Part shown: in pieces, positions 627 through 6,537 of the stretch | Layout: each line of letters opens with the position of its first letter | Position numbering within the stretch: the stretch's first letter is position 1 | Assembly: GCA_947588655.1 (NCBI GenBank) | Contig: CANPYS010000005.1 | Location: forward strand, 1-63,763 | DNA: 63,763 nucleotides | Source: an uncultured Alphaproteobacteria bacterium | Lineage (GTDB): Bacteria; Pseudomonadota; Alphaproteobacteria; RF32; CAG-239 | Direction: 5' to 3' | Position numbers and translations under genes: made by a program | Notes under the pieces: model-generated | Told to the model about the DNA's origin: nothing | Seen by the model: only the letters and a program-made list of their open reading frames with translations | The model's database searches: none

Positions 627-1766
627 CTATGATTCAAAAAACCATTTTCTACTATTTTCGTTGTTTTTACTCAACAGTTTCTTTAATCCCTCTAAATCAT
701 CTGGTGATGATAACTTATGTATCATTCTATGACACGTTGGACATAAAATTAAAAAATCATCCGGTTTAACTATACGACTTTCACCTTCATCTAGTTCAGA
801 AAATGGAGTTTTATGGTGAGCTTCTAATATGTTTTTCATAGTCTCTCCATATTTTTTTACAGGATCTAAACCACACCCCATACAAACATACCCAAGATGC
901 TCTTTTATTGCTTTAATGTCTTTATTAGAAAGTCTCCCCTCATACTTAATATGATTATCTTTTCGCCGTTTTTCTTCCTCAAAAAACTCTATACGTTTCA
1001 GCACATGCTGAAAATTATTTTGTGGCAAAATCCCTTTAAATGATTTTAATTCATTCCTTAAATTCTCTTTTATATATTCTTCCCCAATTTCAGCTTCATT
1101 AATCAGTGTTTTTAAGCCTTTTTCTCTTGTTGGATAAACATCTGTATAATTAAATTGTTCGTTTGCTGCTTTGCCTATATTTTTATTACCCAATTCCTTG
1201 ATAAATAAGTTCTCGCGCTCGTCATCTGTTTTATTAATCAATGAAGCCCAATCTACACCCTTTTTCTCTAAAGATTTCAAAGCCTGCTTTATTTCTAAGG
1301 ACAATAAATCTTTATAATCATGTAAAGCAGGACTTGTAGAAAAAGATAATGCGGCGGAAGTATTGGATGTTTTATCAGTTGTGTTTAAACTAGCGCCTGA
1401 ATAAGAATGACCACTTGAATTTTTATAAGTATATTGAGACGAATTACCGGAAGAATTATGATTAGTTTCCATTGGCTCGTCTGGAACTTCATATATAACT
1501 TTGCGACCAAAATTACGATTTAACCATTGGTCTATATCATATTCATGTGTGTAAAAATATAGCGGAATACAACTTATAAAGGTTATGCATCCCCAAAAAA
1601 TAAGCTGCTCTATTCTATCTGGAGCATCAATAAATAAGGAAACTATAAAGTTTAATGGTCCGACAAGTAGTCCTACAACAGAAAGAGTACCAAGAAACAT
1701 AATAATTATTTGTATTGCTGATAAAATCTTTCCTATTAAACTTAATTCTATTTTTTCGTCAATCAT
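627..1766 (-). CDS. Membrane-anchored (2 TM) McrA-like HNH endonuclease
   Basis: Two N-terminal hydrophobic helices, Ser/Thr-rich linker, C-terminal CMGC...LEAHH...LCPTCHRMIH. Confidence 0.75.
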   Translation of the reverse strand: MIDEKIELSLIGKILSAIQIIIMFLGTLSVVGLLVGPLNFIVSLFIDAPDRIEQLIFWGCITFISCIPLYFYTHEYDIDQWLNRNFGRKVIYEVPDEPMETNHNSSGNSSQYTYKNSSGHSYSGASLNTTDKTSNTSAALSFSTSPALHDYKDLLSLEIKQALKSLEKKGVDWASLINKTDDERENLFIKELGNKNIGKAANEQFNYTDVYPTREKGLKTLINEAEIGEEYIKENLRNELKSFKGILPQNNFQHVLKRIEFFEEEKRRKDNHIKYEGRLSNKDIKAIKEHLGYVCMGCGLDPVKKYGETMKNILEAHHKTPFSELDEGESRIVKPDDFLILCPTCHRMIHKLSSPDDLEGLKKLLSKNNENSRKWFFES

Positions 1767-1857
1767 TTAAGATTCTTCCTTTCGTATCATGCATTAAAGA
1801 GTTCACTCTAATATTTACCTTATATAACTATTTTTTCTTTTTCAATACATATAATTT

Positions 1858-2754
1858 CTAGCCGCCTATTATCGTCTCAAAACAGTCCTTTTCTGTATAT
1901 CCCTCATCACATGGAATATCATTATCTTCGTAAAGAAGAACTGTAATAACAGCTTCAAGTTGTGGTGCTTTAAAAACAACTTCCTTTGAGACCAATCCCT
2001 TTCCCCACCATATTTCATGTTGGTCTTTTTCATATTGAATATCACATCCGTGGTAAACTCTATATGTTAGAGATGAAATAGGAACTTCTTCGCAATCAAA
2101 TTTATATTGAACCAATTTAGTTTTTAGTAAGCTTTTACTTTTTCGACACCATAATATAAAACCATTATCAGAAAACACTACCATAGCTTTTTCATCAGTC
2201 ATATCTATCCATTTAAGTATAGTGGCGGTTAGGGAGGTCGCATACCTGACGGCTAAATTCTGAAAAAGCGAGACACCAAATGGATATTGTGAGGCGGTTT
2301 TTCTAAAATCATCTAGAGGCATCAACAAATAAGAAGCAAAGATATTGGCTTCATTTTCTATTTCCGAATTAGCATTTCCGTCCATAATATCTTGTTTTGA
2401 GCATTGCAAACCCTTTGGGAATTTTTTACGATGTAATAAATAATGTCCAAACTCATGGGCTAAAGTAAAATTAATACGACCGCCGTACTTTATATTCTCG
2501 TTATATAATATAACCCATCCTTGAGGAGTTTTTCTGAGTAATCCATCGACCTTATCACTTAGTTTAATTGCTGTGATAGCAAAGATACAATCCTTATCTG
2601 TACATTGGTGGCATTTATTTCTGTTAGAACAAATATCTTTAGAATATTGTGCCGCGAATCCCCGTATGTTGATAGGAAATCGTTTTTCACCGTAAACAAT
2701 GGCTAATTGTCGGGATAGTCGAATAGCAGTTTTCTGTGGAGTTTCATTAGTCAT
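1858..2754 (-). CDS. ImmA/IrrE family metallopeptidase (CapP-like)
   Basis: RINFTLAHEFGH zinc motif and ENEANIFASYLLMP; overlaps the XRE gene. Confidence 0.9.
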   Translation of the reverse strand: MTNETPQKTAIRLSRQLAIVYGEKRFPINIRGFAAQYSKDICSNRNKCHQCTDKDCIFAITAIKLSDKVDGLLRKTPQGWVILYNENIKYGGRINFTLAHEFGHYLLHRKKFPKGLQCSKQDIMDGNANSEIENEANIFASYLLMPLDDFRKTASQYPFGVSLFQNLAVRYATSLTATILKWIDMTDEKAMVVFSDNGFILWCRKSKSLLKTKLVQYKFDCEEVPISSLTYRVYHGCDIQYEKDQHEIWWGKGLVSKEVVFKAPQLEAVITVLLYEDNDIPCDEGYTEKDCFETIIGG

Positions 2755-3067
2755 TTTTTTTCATTTTAATTATTAATTTAATCATTTCTTCAATTTTTTC
2801 TTGATCTGCCTCTGATAAATTGCTAACTCTGGTAAATATCCTTTGTGCTGTATCAAAAGTTTGATTTACATCTTCTTTCATTAAATAATCAAGAGTTACT
2901 CCAAAATATTTTGCTAGTTCTGATAATTTTTCAGCCGAAGGATTTTTAGTTCCCTTTTCAAGTTCCCACAAATAACTTTTACTAGATTGAGTTATTGTGG
3001 CTAACTCATCAAGAGAAAGACCTTTCTCTTGTCTAAGTTTTCTTAACTTTTCACCGATTGTAGACAT
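2747..3067 (-). CDS. XRE-family HTH regulator (CapH-like)
   Basis: MSTIGEKLRKLRQEKGLSLDELA...SKSYLWELE...NPS; GGGGG SD-like site upstream. Confidence 0.9.
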   Translation of the reverse strand: MSTIGEKLRKLRQEKGLSLDELATITQSSKSYLWELEKGTKNPSAEKLSELAKYFGVTLDYLMKEDVNQTFDTAQRIFTRVSNLSEADQEKIEEMIKLIIKMKKND

Positions 3068-3111
3068 TATTCCCCCGTTTAAAGTTATACACATAATTCA
3101 CAATGCATATA

Positions 3112-3163
3112 TAGCGAACAAAATTGTATTTGACAAGCATTATTTTTAGATATATGTTCGCTA
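3112..3163 (+). promoter_or_regulatory. Sigma70 promoter flanked by an inverted repeat (putative XRE operator)
   Basis: TTGACA 3130-3135, 17 bp spacer, TATGTT 3153-3158; TAGCGAACA (3112-3120) and TGTTCGCTA (3155-3163). Confidence 0.6.
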
Positions 3164-3240
3164 ATGAGGTACGATGTCGTATCTTGCGAGTCTGACATTA
3201 AAGTCAAACTTGCTTAACTTTAGAATAAAGGAGATAAAAA

Positions 3241-3513
3241 ATGCCTTATAACGTAAAAAATTTGAATGGAACTTCAAATAATAGAGTTCCATGCGGTTAT
3301 ACCAGTTGGTTGGATTTCTGGGAAAAAAAATCTGGTAAAAAAGCAAGGGAATGTGCCTGTTGCTATAAAAACGCGGAAGTCGGAGCTCATGTTCAAAAGG
3401 CTAATAGCGATGACCGTTCATGGTATATCGTTCCTTTGTGTTGTCATTGTAACTGTATATCATCTTCTGAAGAATTTACAGTTTATGATATACTTATTCC
3501 TGTAAATTCATAA
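3241..3513 (+). CDS. Small HNH-like zinc-finger protein (90 aa)
   Basis: AAGGAG RBS; CACC...GAHV...WYIVPLCCHCN resembles a His-Me finger. Confidence 0.65.
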   Translation: MPYNVKNLNGTSNNRVPCGYTSWLDFWEKKSGKKARECACCYKNAEVGAHVQKANSDDRSWYIVPLCCHCNCISSSEEFTVYDILIPVNS

Positions 3514-3525
3514 GGAGATGAAGAT

Positions 3526-3699
3526 ATGGCAACTAATCCACCATCAGGTGATGGACATAGAAACGGAGCTGTAAGAGACCGTTCTCAAGTCCATAATCCC
3601 CGAAATGACCGTTGGGTTAAGCGTGATACCAATTCGGGTAGATTTATTGACCAAAAGTCAAATAAAGATCCGTTTAAAGGTGTTCGTAAAGAAAAATAG
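3526..3699 (+). CDS. 57-aa basic small protein (not in ORF track)
   Basis: TAAGGAG RBS overlaps the upstream stop; translates to MATNPPSGDGHRNGAVRDRSQVHNPRNDRWVKRDTNSGRFIDQKSNKDPFKGVRKEK. Confidence 0.8.
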   Translation: MATNPPSGDGHRNGAVRDRSQVHNPRNDRWVKRDTNSGRFIDQKSNKDPFKGVRKEK

Positions 3700-3764
3700 C
3701 TTATCTAGCGGCAACTAGATAAGCTAGCTGTTCAATATAGCTCTGATTTTATCAGAGCTATATT
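3697..3764 (+). terminator. Two tandem perfect hairpins closing the small operon
   Basis: TAGCTTATCTAG/CTAGATAAGCTA (12 bp) and AATATAGCTCTGAT/ATCAGAGCTATATT (14 bp). Confidence 0.55.
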
Positions 3765-4125
3765 TTGTATAATAAAATGAAAAAAATGTCAATACTATTT
3801 ATAACATCAGCTCATTTCAACAATTTTCTTTTGAGCGACAGTGTTGTAAAGGTTGATATTTTTAGCGGCGACAGTTAATAAGAGTTCTTCTATCGCTAAA
3901 ATGTCAAAAATGTACTTTTTGGTTGGTCTCATATCTGCTTCATGTAAGCCAATATATCCCGAAAGGTAATAGGATTAGAACCGCGTTAAATACCTGTAAA
4001 ATAAAGGATTTCATCAGGGATGGTCCGTGTAACAAGCAAAAAACAGCTTTATTAAACTTATTTTACACGGACCGTCTGAAAGCGTTGGTTTATAAAGAAA
4101 AAAGCCACTTTTCAGCGGCTTTATC

Positions 4126-4149
4126 TTATGTGGCAGGGGCAGTAAGATT
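4126..4149 (-). repeat. att-like direct repeat of the tRNA-Trp 3' end
   Basis: TTATGTGGCAGGGGCAGTAAGATT is identical to 4448-4471. Confidence 0.85.
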
Positions 4150-4224
4150 ACTCCGCTACGCTCCGTTCACTGCGCTCATCGGCTACGCCGACCGCGATAC
4201 TCCGTCTCGCTTTCGCTTGTAGTC

Positions 4225-4340
4225 TTCTTGCTCGTAAACTCTGCTCTTTGAGCAATCGTTAACTCGCTTCGGTCACCGCTCTGTAACGTTTGCATCGGTG
4301 CCTGCCGGCACCTCGCAAGCTAACAATCGCGTGATGTCGC
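4225..4340. repeat. Dispersed structured repeat, family A, copy 1
   Basis: Reverse complement closely matches 28922-29037. Confidence 0.85.
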
Positions 4341-4421
4341 CCCAAAACACCAATTACTTTTGGTGTTTTGGGGGCTCCACTCACTTCTTCGTGAGTTCAA
4401 ACCTAACTTACCTTTGCCAAT

Positions 4422-4449
4422 AAAAAAACGCCACAAGGGCGTTTTTTTT
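4422..4449 (-). terminator. Intrinsic terminator of tRNA-Trp
   Basis: AAAAAAACGCC-acaag-GGCGTTTTTTT. Confidence 0.75.
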
Positions 4450-4452
4450 ATG

Positions 4453-4528
4453 TGGCAGGGGCAGTAAGATTCGAACTCACGACACTCGGTTTTGGAGACC
4501 GATGCTCTACCAACTGAGCTATACCCCT
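4453..4528 (-). tRNA. tRNA-Trp (CCA)
   Basis: AGGGGTATAGCTCAGTTGGTAGAGCATCGGTCTCCAAAACCGAG...GTTCGAATC...CCCCTGCCA; 76 nt with encoded CCA end. Confidence 0.97.
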
Positions 4529-4840
4529 ACAAAATCTTCCCGATTTATATCGTATAAAAAAATATAAATCAAGTACTTTTTTGATTTCCTTGCAAATATT
4601 GCGTTTGCGGCGTCTAGCCTGCTCATAAATTCCTCATTTTTTGCGGGGGCTTAGAGGGAAACCTCATTAGCCGCATTAGCCTCATTAGGTTTTTTGGCTT
4701 TTTTTTGCCCCACACCCATATTTTCGCGCGTTTTGCCTCAAATGTCCACACTTATTACGATAACTCTTTGAAAATTGGGGATAGTTCTTGGTAAATTAGG
4801 TGGGGATATAATTGTTTTACATACCATCCTAAAAAAACTA

Positions 4841-5659
4841 TCAAAATAAACTGTTTTGAACAACTTTAGGTAATGGAAATAGACCAATTATGATAAAAGG
4901 ATTTGTTGCCCAACCATGATATTGCCTTGTTGTACCTAGAAAGAAATATAAATCTCTTTCTTTTGCATAGTTTTCAAAAAATTTTTCCTTTAATTTCTGT
5001 AGTGCTATTTCTTCACTTTTGTAGTGAGCTTTCCAGTTCCAAAAAGCAGCTCCGACTTCCCAATCCTCTATCATTAAGGTTGATCGTTTGCCCTTAATGT
5101 CTTCAAAAACGTAAGAAAATTTATAGGGTAGTTTATCTACAATTTTGAATACATCATCATCTTCCCCATTAGCAAACAAATTTAATTGCTTTCTTTCCCT
5201 TTCAATTGCATCCAACTTTTCTTTAGAGTATTCTCTACCATCTTTTTTCCAAATAAAATCTATAATTTTTGATGGTTTGAATACAGCTAAAGACATATTT
5301 GTTGAGTTTGATTCCTCAATTAATTTTGATAAATCGTTATGGATTTTTTGTTTTAAGACAATGTTACTTTTACGTCCCCAGTCTCTAGCCTCTATTTGCT
5401 CTAATAATTTTATTCTAGCAAAATCAACCTTATAGCTTTCAATTCTAGGATCTTCATTACTCTTATACATTCTCGCTTCAATCCATCTATATTTTGGATA
5501 TTGTTGCTCGTCATTTAGTTTTCTAAAAGGAATTGGATATAATCTAAACCAATTTCCCTCTTCATCCATACCAGCTGTACAGACTAATTCTGTGTATTTT
5601 TTTGAAATAGAAGGATATGTTTTTACAAGGATTAAAATCTTTTTCGTTATAAAGTCCAT
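4841..5659 (-). CDS. Conserved partner of DUF488 protein (possibly dual-OB-like)
   Basis: ILVKTYP...YTELVCTAG...WFRLYP motif; TAATG coupling to the DUF488 gene. Confidence 0.6.
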   Translation of the reverse strand: MDFITKKILILVKTYPSISKKYTELVCTAGMDEEGNWFRLYPIPFRKLNDEQQYPKYRWIEARMYKSNEDPRIESYKVDFARIKLLEQIEARDWGRKSNIVLKQKIHNDLSKLIEESNSTNMSLAVFKPSKIIDFIWKKDGREYSKEKLDAIERERKQLNLFANGEDDDVFKIVDKLPYKFSYVFEDIKGKRSTLMIEDWEVGAAFWNWKAHYKSEEIALQKLKEKFFENYAKERDLYFFLGTTRQYHGWATNPFIIIGLFPLPKVVQNSLF

Positions 5660-6537
5660 TAAATATGCTCCAACTGCAAATCTGGTCTTTTCTTTATAAG
5701 CGCATTTGCTACCCTAGCTCTATGACACATATGATAATCAGCCTCAAAACAAGTCAATGCAACTCTTTTATATTTTGTAATTAGAGTTAAAATCTCATCT
5801 AAATATTTATCTGAATTTACAAGAATTGTTTTTTCATAGATTGCAAATAATTTATTATAATCATCTATTGTATTAAGCCCTATTCTTTGCTCGGACTCAA
5901 TACCTAGCTGAGGAAAATGAATATAATGCACGCCTAATTTTTCAATAATTTTTTGTAAAGCAGACTTTGAAAATCCATATTTTCTACTAATAGGATTCTT
6001 TCTAACATCACAAACGAGCTTTATATTATTTTTTATCAGTTTATTAATGTAGTCATCAATACTTTCGGATTCATACCCAATTGTAAATAATTGCATTTTA
6101 TTAGATGTTTCTATAGTGTATCTATCTTTATTTGGAAAAATTCTACTAAAAATTTCGCTATTTAAAGTATAGTATGGATATTCTTTATAAACGTATTTAA
6201 TTAAATCTTCACCCTTATATTTAGAATACATCTCCTTAAATTTAACAATTTTATTTTTATCGTTATTATTCAATAAAGATATATAATCAACATCAGTATT
6301 TTTTAATTCTATACAATTATTATAAATTATGTATTGAGCTTGTTCAAGATTCCTTATATCTGCATACGACTGAAAAGAAAAACATCCATATTTATAAGGA
6401 ACAAAACTATAGTCTCTTTTTTCCTTGGATTGACAGATTTGAGTATACAAAAATAAATATTTTTGGAAATCAGTTTTATCTAAGCTTCCACCAAACGCCT
6501 GTATTAACGATAAAATTAACTTCTGCCTATAAAACAT
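5659..6537 (-). CDS. DUF488 family protein with N-terminal SocA/Panacea-like helical domain
   Basis: LFTIGYE, DVRKNPISRKYGFSK, LTCFE...CHR; N-terminal QKYLFL...FVPYKYG. Confidence 0.8.
   Translation of the reverse strand: MFYRQKLILSLIQAFGGSLDKTDFQKYLFLYTQICQSKEKRDYSFVPYKYGCFSFQSYADIRNLEQAQYIIYNNCIELKNTDVDYISLLNNNDKNKIVKFKEMYSKYKGEDLIKYVYKEYPYYTLNSEIFSRIFPNKDRYTIETSNKMQLFTIGYESESIDDYINKLIKNNIKLVCDVRKNPISRKYGFSKSALQKIIEKLGVHYIHFPQLGIESEQRIGLNTIDDYNKLFAIYEKTILVNSDKYLDEILTLITKYKRVALTCFEADYHMCHRARVANALIKKRPDLQLEHI

Follow-up and report, generated by a model that had tools for sequence, protein, structure and literature searches.

In this work we have analysed a window of 63,763 nucleotides (nt) from an uncultured alphaproteobacterium (contig CANPYS010000005.1, positions 1 to 63,763), and in particular a compact locus near its start, in which two regulatory genes of the CapH/CapP type are divergent from two very small genes. 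The regulatory open reading frames (ORFs) encode proteins of 298 and 115 amino acids (aa) and overlap by 8 nt on the minus strand of the ORF map. On the plus strand lie the ORFs for a Cys-rich protein of 90 aa (P90) and a basic protein of 57 aa (p57), which are 12 nt apart and carry the ribosome-binding-site-like motifs AAAGGAG and TAAGGAG, respectively, 7-8 nt 5' of their starts. The best sigma-70-like site of the region 1700-4600 is TTGACA-17-TATGTT at 3130-3158 (+), with a score of 10/12. The operon is closed by a hairpin pair with a folding energy of -35.9 kcal/mol (z = -7.2), and none of 200 shuffled sequences folded equally well. An earlier reading made from the sequence only had described XRE and HExxH genes divergent from a compact operon with its own promoter, two ribosome-binding sites and double hairpins, and every one of these features has been found again in the sequence. 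All features are collected in Table 1.

Table 1 Features of the locus and its surroundings, with coordinates in the window
Feature	Position	Strand	Evidence or remarks
capP-like zinc metallopeptidase, 298 aa, HExxH = H100-E101-x-x-H104	1858..2754	-	PADLOC, Pfam, PDB
capH-like XRE/helix-turn-helix (HTH) repressor, 115-aa ORF, conserved Trp W43	2747..3094	-	PADLOC, Pfam, PDB
Candidate operator, 9-nt perfect inverted repeat TAGCGAACA (3112-3120) / TGTTCGCTA (3155-3163) around the promoter	3112..3163		
Two predicted hairpins of the 5' untranslated region, 5' of the P90 gene	3166-3185, 3186-3213	+	RNAalifold
90-aa Cys-rich protein P90	3241..3513	+	ORF map; relatives; AlphaFold2; third-position bias
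57-aa basic protein p57 = PADLOC candidate PDC-S38 / phrog_12550	3526..3699	+	PADLOC, PHROGs
Two tandem terminator-like hairpins closing the operon	3697-3726, 3734-3764 (3697..3764)	+	Folding energy against shuffles
tRNA-Trp	4453-4528	-	Locus on its 3' side
PADLOC candidate pair PDC-M19B + PDC-M19A (DUF488 domain)	4841-6537	-	PADLOC, 1.8e-98 (PDC-M19B) and 7.6e-104 (PDC-M19A)

Both small ORFs behave like genes. For p57, 71 comparisons with homologues gave 926, 549 and 2573 differences at the first, second and third codon positions, and the codon changes were 1870 synonymous against 991 non-synonymous. For P90, four comparisons gave 115, 85 and 190. Since the differences from homologues concentrate at third codon positions, this substitution pattern indicates that both ORFs are real genes under protein-level selection. 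A search of sequencing runs found the stretch in 7 DNA runs from 3 gut metagenome studies, three of these runs being possible sources of the contig, with no RNA run among the matches.

The two regulators could be assigned with good support. The 298-aa protein matches the PADLOC capP model at 1.4e-56 (model positions 7-241 of 242, with the match reaching residue 275) and Pfam Peptidase_M78 at 9.2e-18. Its sole sequence match in PDB is the CapP of Thauera (7T5T, "CapP toxin"; 1.9e-34, residues 5-208). With regard to the C-terminal GAF domain of CapP, the HMM match thus extends further than the 7T5T alignment, to 275 against 208. The 115-aa protein matches the PADLOC capH model at 5.1e-27 (model positions 4-100 of 103) and Pfam HTH_3 at 4.7e-15, and its closest PDB relative is the HTH domain of CapH (7T5U, 2.1e-13), with "SKSYLWELE" aligned, followed by Deinococcus DdrO. 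Judged by these matches, the pair is CapP plus CapH, and the CapH/CapP-like switch proposed earlier is upheld by both models, by both solved relatives and by the divergent layout. The true start of capH is likely M10 at 3067, giving 106 aa, since the alignment with the capH model begins at residue 10. The capP gene is single-copy in the 1.55-Mb genome, and so is that of P90.

The peptidase has HEFGH at residues 100-104, and both HE.GH and QCS align with 7T5T. In particular, the "QCSKQD" that holds C118 is matched by "QCSDAD" in the Thauera enzyme, which makes C118 the cysteine-switch candidate, and the acidic D122 and D125 come after it. In the preprint of Calloji et al. (2026), as far as its accessible text goes, the switch cysteine blocks the zinc site of CapP until single-stranded DNA (ssDNA) binds, and a switch-loop cysteine after HExxH is reported for many CapP proteins, not all. 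HExxH, the switch cysteine and the HTH Trp of the known systems are all present in the window proteins. The window CapP differs from that of Thauera in a 10-residue Cys-rich insert (C42, C48, C51 and C56, residues 42-56), opposite which the aligned Thauera sequence has a gap; this insert might provide an additional site for metal binding or redox chemistry.

The layout is likewise that of known systems. In the part of the preprint of Lau et al. (2022) available to us, capH-capP lies upstream of, and opposite to, the cargo, and the overlapped HTH and M78/IrrE-like peptidase genes opposite the cargo are what the window shares with the CapH/CapP of CBASS, the antiphage signalling system that uses cyclic oligonucleotides, and other immune operons. 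The difference is in the cargo, which here consists of two tiny proteins, without CD-NTase, DISARM or ubiquitin-like genes. The statement of the sequence-only reading that no CD-NTase or other known cargo is present stands for the operon as a whole, although PADLOC does list the 57-aa gene among its candidates.

Around the promoter we have found a 9-nt perfect inverted repeat, and no second site of this kind occurs in the 1.55-Mb genome. Two related loci, L002 and L132, reproduce the entire layout of the window together with its promoter region. In these the arms of the repeat and the -35 box are invariant, while the regulators and P90 are only 53-71% identical. CapH would bind at this repeat. 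In addition, RNAalifold on the three sequences (window, L002 and L132) predicts two hairpins in the leader, with 18 pairs of which 4 have both sides changed. With three sequences only, we treat these hairpins as a lead, either to an RNA element or to a second palindromic operator.

P90 carries the motif that had been read from the sequence, CxxC...GAHV...LCxxCN, as C38xxC41, G48-A49-H50-V51 and L66-C67-x-x-C70-N71. None of Pfam, PADLOC, PHROGs and NCBIfam contains a family for it, and the search of the window protein against Pfam gave no family at E<=1. Nevertheless, a profile search over 1.84 billion representatives (50% identity) found 2826 relatives at E<=1e-3 and 1176 at E<=1e-10, mostly 88-105 aa long. 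Across the family N7, W23, W27, C38, C41, G48, H50, V51, Y62, I63, P65, C67 and N71 are invariant or nearly so, and either Cys or His occupies the fourth ligand position. The AlphaFold2 model is confident (predicted local distance difference test, pLDDT, 91.3) and shows strands at 47-53, with H50 on the strand, and 62-66, followed by a short helix at 68-71 carrying N71. This model fits a zinc-stabilised beta-beta-alpha finger.

Whether P90 is a mini His-Me nuclease, as had been claimed, is a different matter. In favour, it shares with HNH/His-Me nucleases of the T4 endonuclease VII and P1 Ref types the order CxxC...His...CxxC-Asn and the predicted strand-strand-short helix. But no hidden Markov model (HMM), profile or fold search gives an above-threshold match. 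P90 has no match among PDB sequences at E<=10 and none in the fold searches. The 142 relatives searched against Pfam reach only E = 0.0018 at best, and their sub-threshold matches are to TT_ORF2-like (28), RecA_dep_nuc (12), DUF968 (6), HNH_5 (4) and Endonuclease_7 (1), the four His-Me families together accounting for at most 23 of the 142. With hhalign, neither P1 Ref (5.3%) nor a 4-sequence Ref alignment (2.8%) gave a significant match, the latter template being thin, as a RecA_dep_nuc search of 301 genomes gave 3 members. As to the structural check suggested earlier, the P90 model is confident and shows strand, strand and helix, but no fold match has been obtained for either P90 or p57. Many members of the family have an extra N-terminal C-x-C...W..H motif, which is the source of the weak TT_ORF2-like matches, and in some proteins the domain occurs in tandem, in two or three copies (P0200, P0201, P0215, P0220, P0231 and P0303).

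On the other hand, p57 is a known candidate. It matches PADLOC PDLC05010 (PDC-S38) at 2.1e-32, residues 1-57 on model positions 1-57, and phrog_12550 at 2e-20 over its full length, and it has no Pfam or NCBIfam family. Its net charge is +7. The AlphaFold2 model (pLDDT 77.6) has a three-stranded sheet and a disordered basic N-terminus; Foldseek against PDB found no fold match, only generic beta-blade rows (best E 0.99), and in the ESM Atlas the nearest clusters for p57 and P90 are unnamed "hypothetical protein" clusters. The family is very widespread. There are at least 3134 clusters at 90% identity (31-100 aa), with records from several phyla and relatives typically 75-85% identical to the window protein, and it occurs on 73 plasmid records and 24 viral contigs. 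Within the phylum, it is found in 15 of 401 sampled genomes, including that of the window. Longer proteins containing p57 number 45 against the 3134 stand-alone clusters and are mostly singletons joined to a ThiF or HTH neighbour; these are probably read-through products or miscalled starts, and hence give no domain clue. We have also tried p57 as a relative of DUF2188 (PDC-S16) and rejected it, with no Pfam match and an hhalign probability of 0.55% (comparison alignment of 7 of 12 sequences, after 3 non-DUF2188 and 2 redundant ones, L056 and L067, were dropped).

The neighbourhood of p57 has been surveyed in 115 loci (11 genome, 24 viral and 80 metagenome), which became 87 non-redundant ones after 28 near-identical duplicates were dropped. 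An HTH and/or M78 protein cluster is present in 33 of the 87, and a PIN-like protein in 10. Among the two nearest upstream ORFs (n=123) we have found Peptidase_M78 in 23 and HTH_3 in 25, followed by WYL (6), WCX (4), TIR (4) and PIN (4), with at least 1 kb of upstream sequence in only 63 loci. The downstream ORFs (n=131) match YdjM (6), ThiF (5), ResIII (5), DUF6791 (4), Multi_ubiq (4), DncV-like nucleotidyltransferase (2) and Cap15 (2). Left out of these Pfam scans were 7 of the 130 upstream ORFs and 4 of the 135 downstream ones, which were very long or duplicates (L124, L126, L127, L130). Of the 78 loci whose sequence reaches far enough, 35 have a co-directional ORF within 120 bp 3' of p57, and p57 comes last or stands alone in the remaining 43. 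Ubiquitin-like and CBASS operons, as found here 3' of p57, are known cargo of CapH/CapP in the available part of Lau et al. (2022). Overall, PDC-S38 is repeatedly found next to ssDNA-sensing regulators (CapH/CapP, fused XRE-M78, WYL-WCX), which fall into at least two unrelated classes, and ahead of varying cargo.

Several individual p57 loci are worth describing. On viral contigs of IMG/VR (L108-L127), p57 comes after caspase-like (Peptidase_C14) and TIR genes and faces an ORF of ~1300 aa. In L217, from a Phocaeicola plasmid, the gene stands behind TIR-SIR2-TIR genes and ahead of a retron-type HNH gene. On a ColE1-type Klebsiella plasmid of 5459 bp (L216, NZ_CP110173.1) the genes for p57, DUF1883 and a 220-aa hypothetical protein face away from a WYL regulator gene. 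Besides these the plasmid carries little more than replication control, which makes it a very compact natural test case for p57.

For P90, the scan covered one genome per GTDB species and the counts refer to the best 80 of 184 relatives, whose sources are largely Bacteroidota, Firmicutes and Alphaproteobacteria of gut and rumen. Within 4.5 kb of P90 in these 80 loci lie an AbiLi-like ATPase in 16, AbiLii/RloB in 9, and capP-like, HTH and DUF2188 (PDC-S16) proteins in 8 each. The nearest-neighbour ORFs (n=148, those >900 aa left out) are most commonly DUF2188 (9), then AAA_21 (8) and HTH_3 (7). A capP/capH-like pair is divergent from P90 in several loci (L008, L036, L057 and L059), with or without DUF2188. 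On plasmids P90 was found in 3 records, all from Vibrio. In nine loci, mostly of Bacteroidales (L007, L017, L025, L037, L040, L047, L050, L052 and L054), an AbiLi/AbiLii (AAA_21 + RloB) pair adjoins P90, usually divergently, and P90 might belong to that system as a third member. Regulators of the XRE/IrrE kind, by linkage with which the sequence-only reading was to be judged, occur in the neighbour counts of both genes, and at other loci each gene serves as cargo of CapH/CapP-like regulators.

The two genes do not, however, travel together. P90 and p57 are adjacent in one of the 80 P90 loci (L002), in none of the 35 genome and viral p57 loci, and in one of the 80 metagenome p57 loci (L132), so that the conserved co-occurrence expected of a toxin and its partner is not seen in these sets. 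In one genome of the same family an unrelated ORF of 103 aa comes before p57, beside a methyltransferase. A complex prediction for P90 and p57 returned no answer (score 0.00, mark 0.32) and counts neither way. We now regard it as unlikely that the 57-aa gene is a dedicated partner of the 90-aa protein. As the pair occurs, among the loci surveyed, only in the window, L002 and L132 while each gene occurs alone elsewhere, P90 and p57 are a lineage-specific combination of two separately occurring modules.

Based on the above analyses, we regard it as probable, with moderate confidence, that the locus is an ssDNA-triggered CapH/CapP switch which derepresses two independent small defence-island genes, P90 as the effector and PDC-S38 as an accessory or growth-arrest protein. 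CapH would bind the inverted repeat and in this way keep the divergent promoter silent. The ssDNA arising from phage attack or DNA damage would activate the CapP peptidase, which would then cut CapH and so turn on the two-gene transcript. This transcript would carry two independent genes of the defence island instead of a dedicated pair. P90 is most likely a zinc-binding, small, nucleic-acid-targeting effector that would act as a homo-oligomer, and we liken it to HNH-type nucleases for its invariant His and Asn in a like arrangement. PDC-S38, a very conserved basic protein with a beta fold in its model, most likely acts on a target common to all the systems that it adjoins, for instance nucleic acid or some host factor that is conserved, and would be either an accessory induced by damage or a growth-arrest protein.

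Several points weigh against this account. The neighbour counts come from naive ORF calling on a non-random sample with many short metagenome contigs, and in each scan they cover the 80 best-scoring loci. The pair and its promoter are kept in three independent loci, and some cooperation between P90 and p57 in this lineage is possible. DUF2188 beside P90 in 9 loci hints that P90 might favour some small partner. Placement of P90 in the His-Me superfamily has failed by HMM, profile and fold search, and the nuclease reading for the whole family is weakened because the conserved His and Asn are replaced in divergent repeats (P0201 and P0231). PDC-S38 is not named in the literature searched and is a candidate by genomic context only. 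Finally, while the analysis establishes who the regulators are, how the genes are laid out, and how both families are distributed and surrounded, the defence phenotype and the regulation of the locus, zinc binding and the activities of the two small proteins are what we infer from the genes and their surroundings.

The account is in line with a known pattern among ssDNA-responsive immunity switches, of which CapH/CapP, CapW/BrxR and CapK/CapS have been described recently. DUF2188 or DUF3892 operons are tied to CapH/CapP in the accessible part of Lau et al. (2022), and CapK/CapS is followed by a YegP homologue in that of a recent report (EMBO J 2026, PMC13373217). Common to these operons, as far as those texts describe them, is an ssDNA-sensing regulator followed by a tiny protein as sole or first cargo, and the present locus extends this pattern by two further proteins. 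DUF2188 is also the commonest direct neighbour of P90, while PDC-S38 has no detectable relation to it; a literature search on DUF2188 listed no paper about its function. Neither PDC-S38 nor P90 is met in the consulted passages of Lau et al. (2022) or PMC13373217, though the supplementary tables may list them. In PADLOC, PDC-S38 is a single-gene candidate, whereas in this locus it comes second in an operon under presumed CapH/CapP control, and its link to ssDNA-sensing regulators has not been met in the literature searched.

A bolder possibility, which we hold only tentatively, is that PDC-S38 is a regulator-agnostic third component of ssDNA-triggered switches and that P90 founds a new family of minimal, zinc-dependent effectors directed at nucleic acid. 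PDC-S38 would then bind ssDNA or a conserved host factor and tune or execute the response behind sensors of the CapH/CapP, XRE-M78 and CapW/BrxR types, and P90 would have a fold without a solved relative. The recurrence of PDC-S38 beside unrelated sensors, ahead of many effectors, points to a shared step in damage-triggered immunity. P90, for its part, represents a large family (the 2826 representatives above) that is unannotated, confidently modelled and without a solved relative. With 57 and 90 residues, both proteins are small and easy to express, mutate and solve.

Turning to readings that part from the preferred one, we consider it doubtful that the locus is a cassette for DNA-damage tolerance or repair, in an IrrE/DdrO-like regulon, instead of anti-phage immunity. 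The next-closest solved relatives of CapH are indeed Deinococcus DdrO, and the capP model also matches in control genomes of Deinococcus, Bacillus, Corynebacterium and Lactococcus. YdjM, a member of the SOS regulon in E. coli, is met in 6 of the 131 ORFs 3' of p57. But the neighbours of both genes are mostly defence genes (AbiL, TIR, caspase, SIR2, CBASS, restriction-modification and PDC-M19), and the distribution is patchy and accessory, with the family on plasmids and viral contigs.

The obligate two-gene abortive-infection module of the sequence-only reading, with P90 as a mini His-Me nuclease toxin and p57 as its inhibitor or cofactor, now appears unlikely. Such a module would agree with the close spacing of the two genes, their single transcript and shared terminator, with the arrangement kept in L002 and L132 despite the divergence of regulators and P90, and with a motif and predicted secondary structure that suit a beta-beta-alpha metal finger. 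It is hard to reconcile with adjacency in one of 80 P90 and one of 115 p57 loci, and with a p57 family of at least 3134 clusters in a database that holds 74 near-length relatives of P90. Moreover, P90 is mostly without any small partner, and p57 keeps ~80% identity whatever its neighbours, unlike a cognate antitoxin. The role of PDC-S38 as an inhibitor or cofactor of P90 is likewise unlikely.

The surroundings of the locus are those of a defence island. A low-GC stretch (~30%, against ~45% around BipA and other core genes) runs from the start of the contig, past the tRNA-Trp, to PDC-M19A/B. As PDC-M19A/B lies beyond the tRNA-Trp, the tRNA sits inside the island. The DNA of the locus has no match in a same-genus genome and none in 21 of 24 same-family genomes; one of the other three (G410) matches over 253 bp, which cover the hairpins and the 3' portion of p57, and the remaining two give only short matches of 34-47 bp. 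Another reading, which we consider very unlikely, is that the regulators belong to a mobile element inserted at the tRNA-Trp, as an ImmR/ImmA-type switch over element genes and not over defence cargo: the locus does lie 3' of the tRNA in a low-GC stretch reaching the contig end, with phrog matches for p57, the peptidase and a DUF2513 neighbour, yet no integrase, excisionase or replication gene occurs from position 1 to the tRNA, the peptidase, with 298 aa, is of the CapP/IrrE type in full length and spans the whole capP model, and the operon stops at strong terminators after two small genes.

Two further observations concern this island. Adjoining capP is a gene for a 379-aa protein (627-1766, -) with a hydrophobic N-terminus and an HNH-like C-terminus (Pfam HNH at 2.5e-4, just over the cut-off, and several PHROG HNH families), followed by a gene for a DUF2513/phrog_585 protein (133-579, -); the two may be another defence gene pair. 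The other is a segment at 4123-4452 with 42-49% GC amid ~30%, which lies between the tRNA-Trp and a minus-strand terminator-like hairpin (4101-4122) and has short ORFs only. Rfam at E<=1 over 3700-4900 gave the tRNA plus two chance-level rows only, and the segment may represent an unannotated RNA transcribed together with the tRNA.

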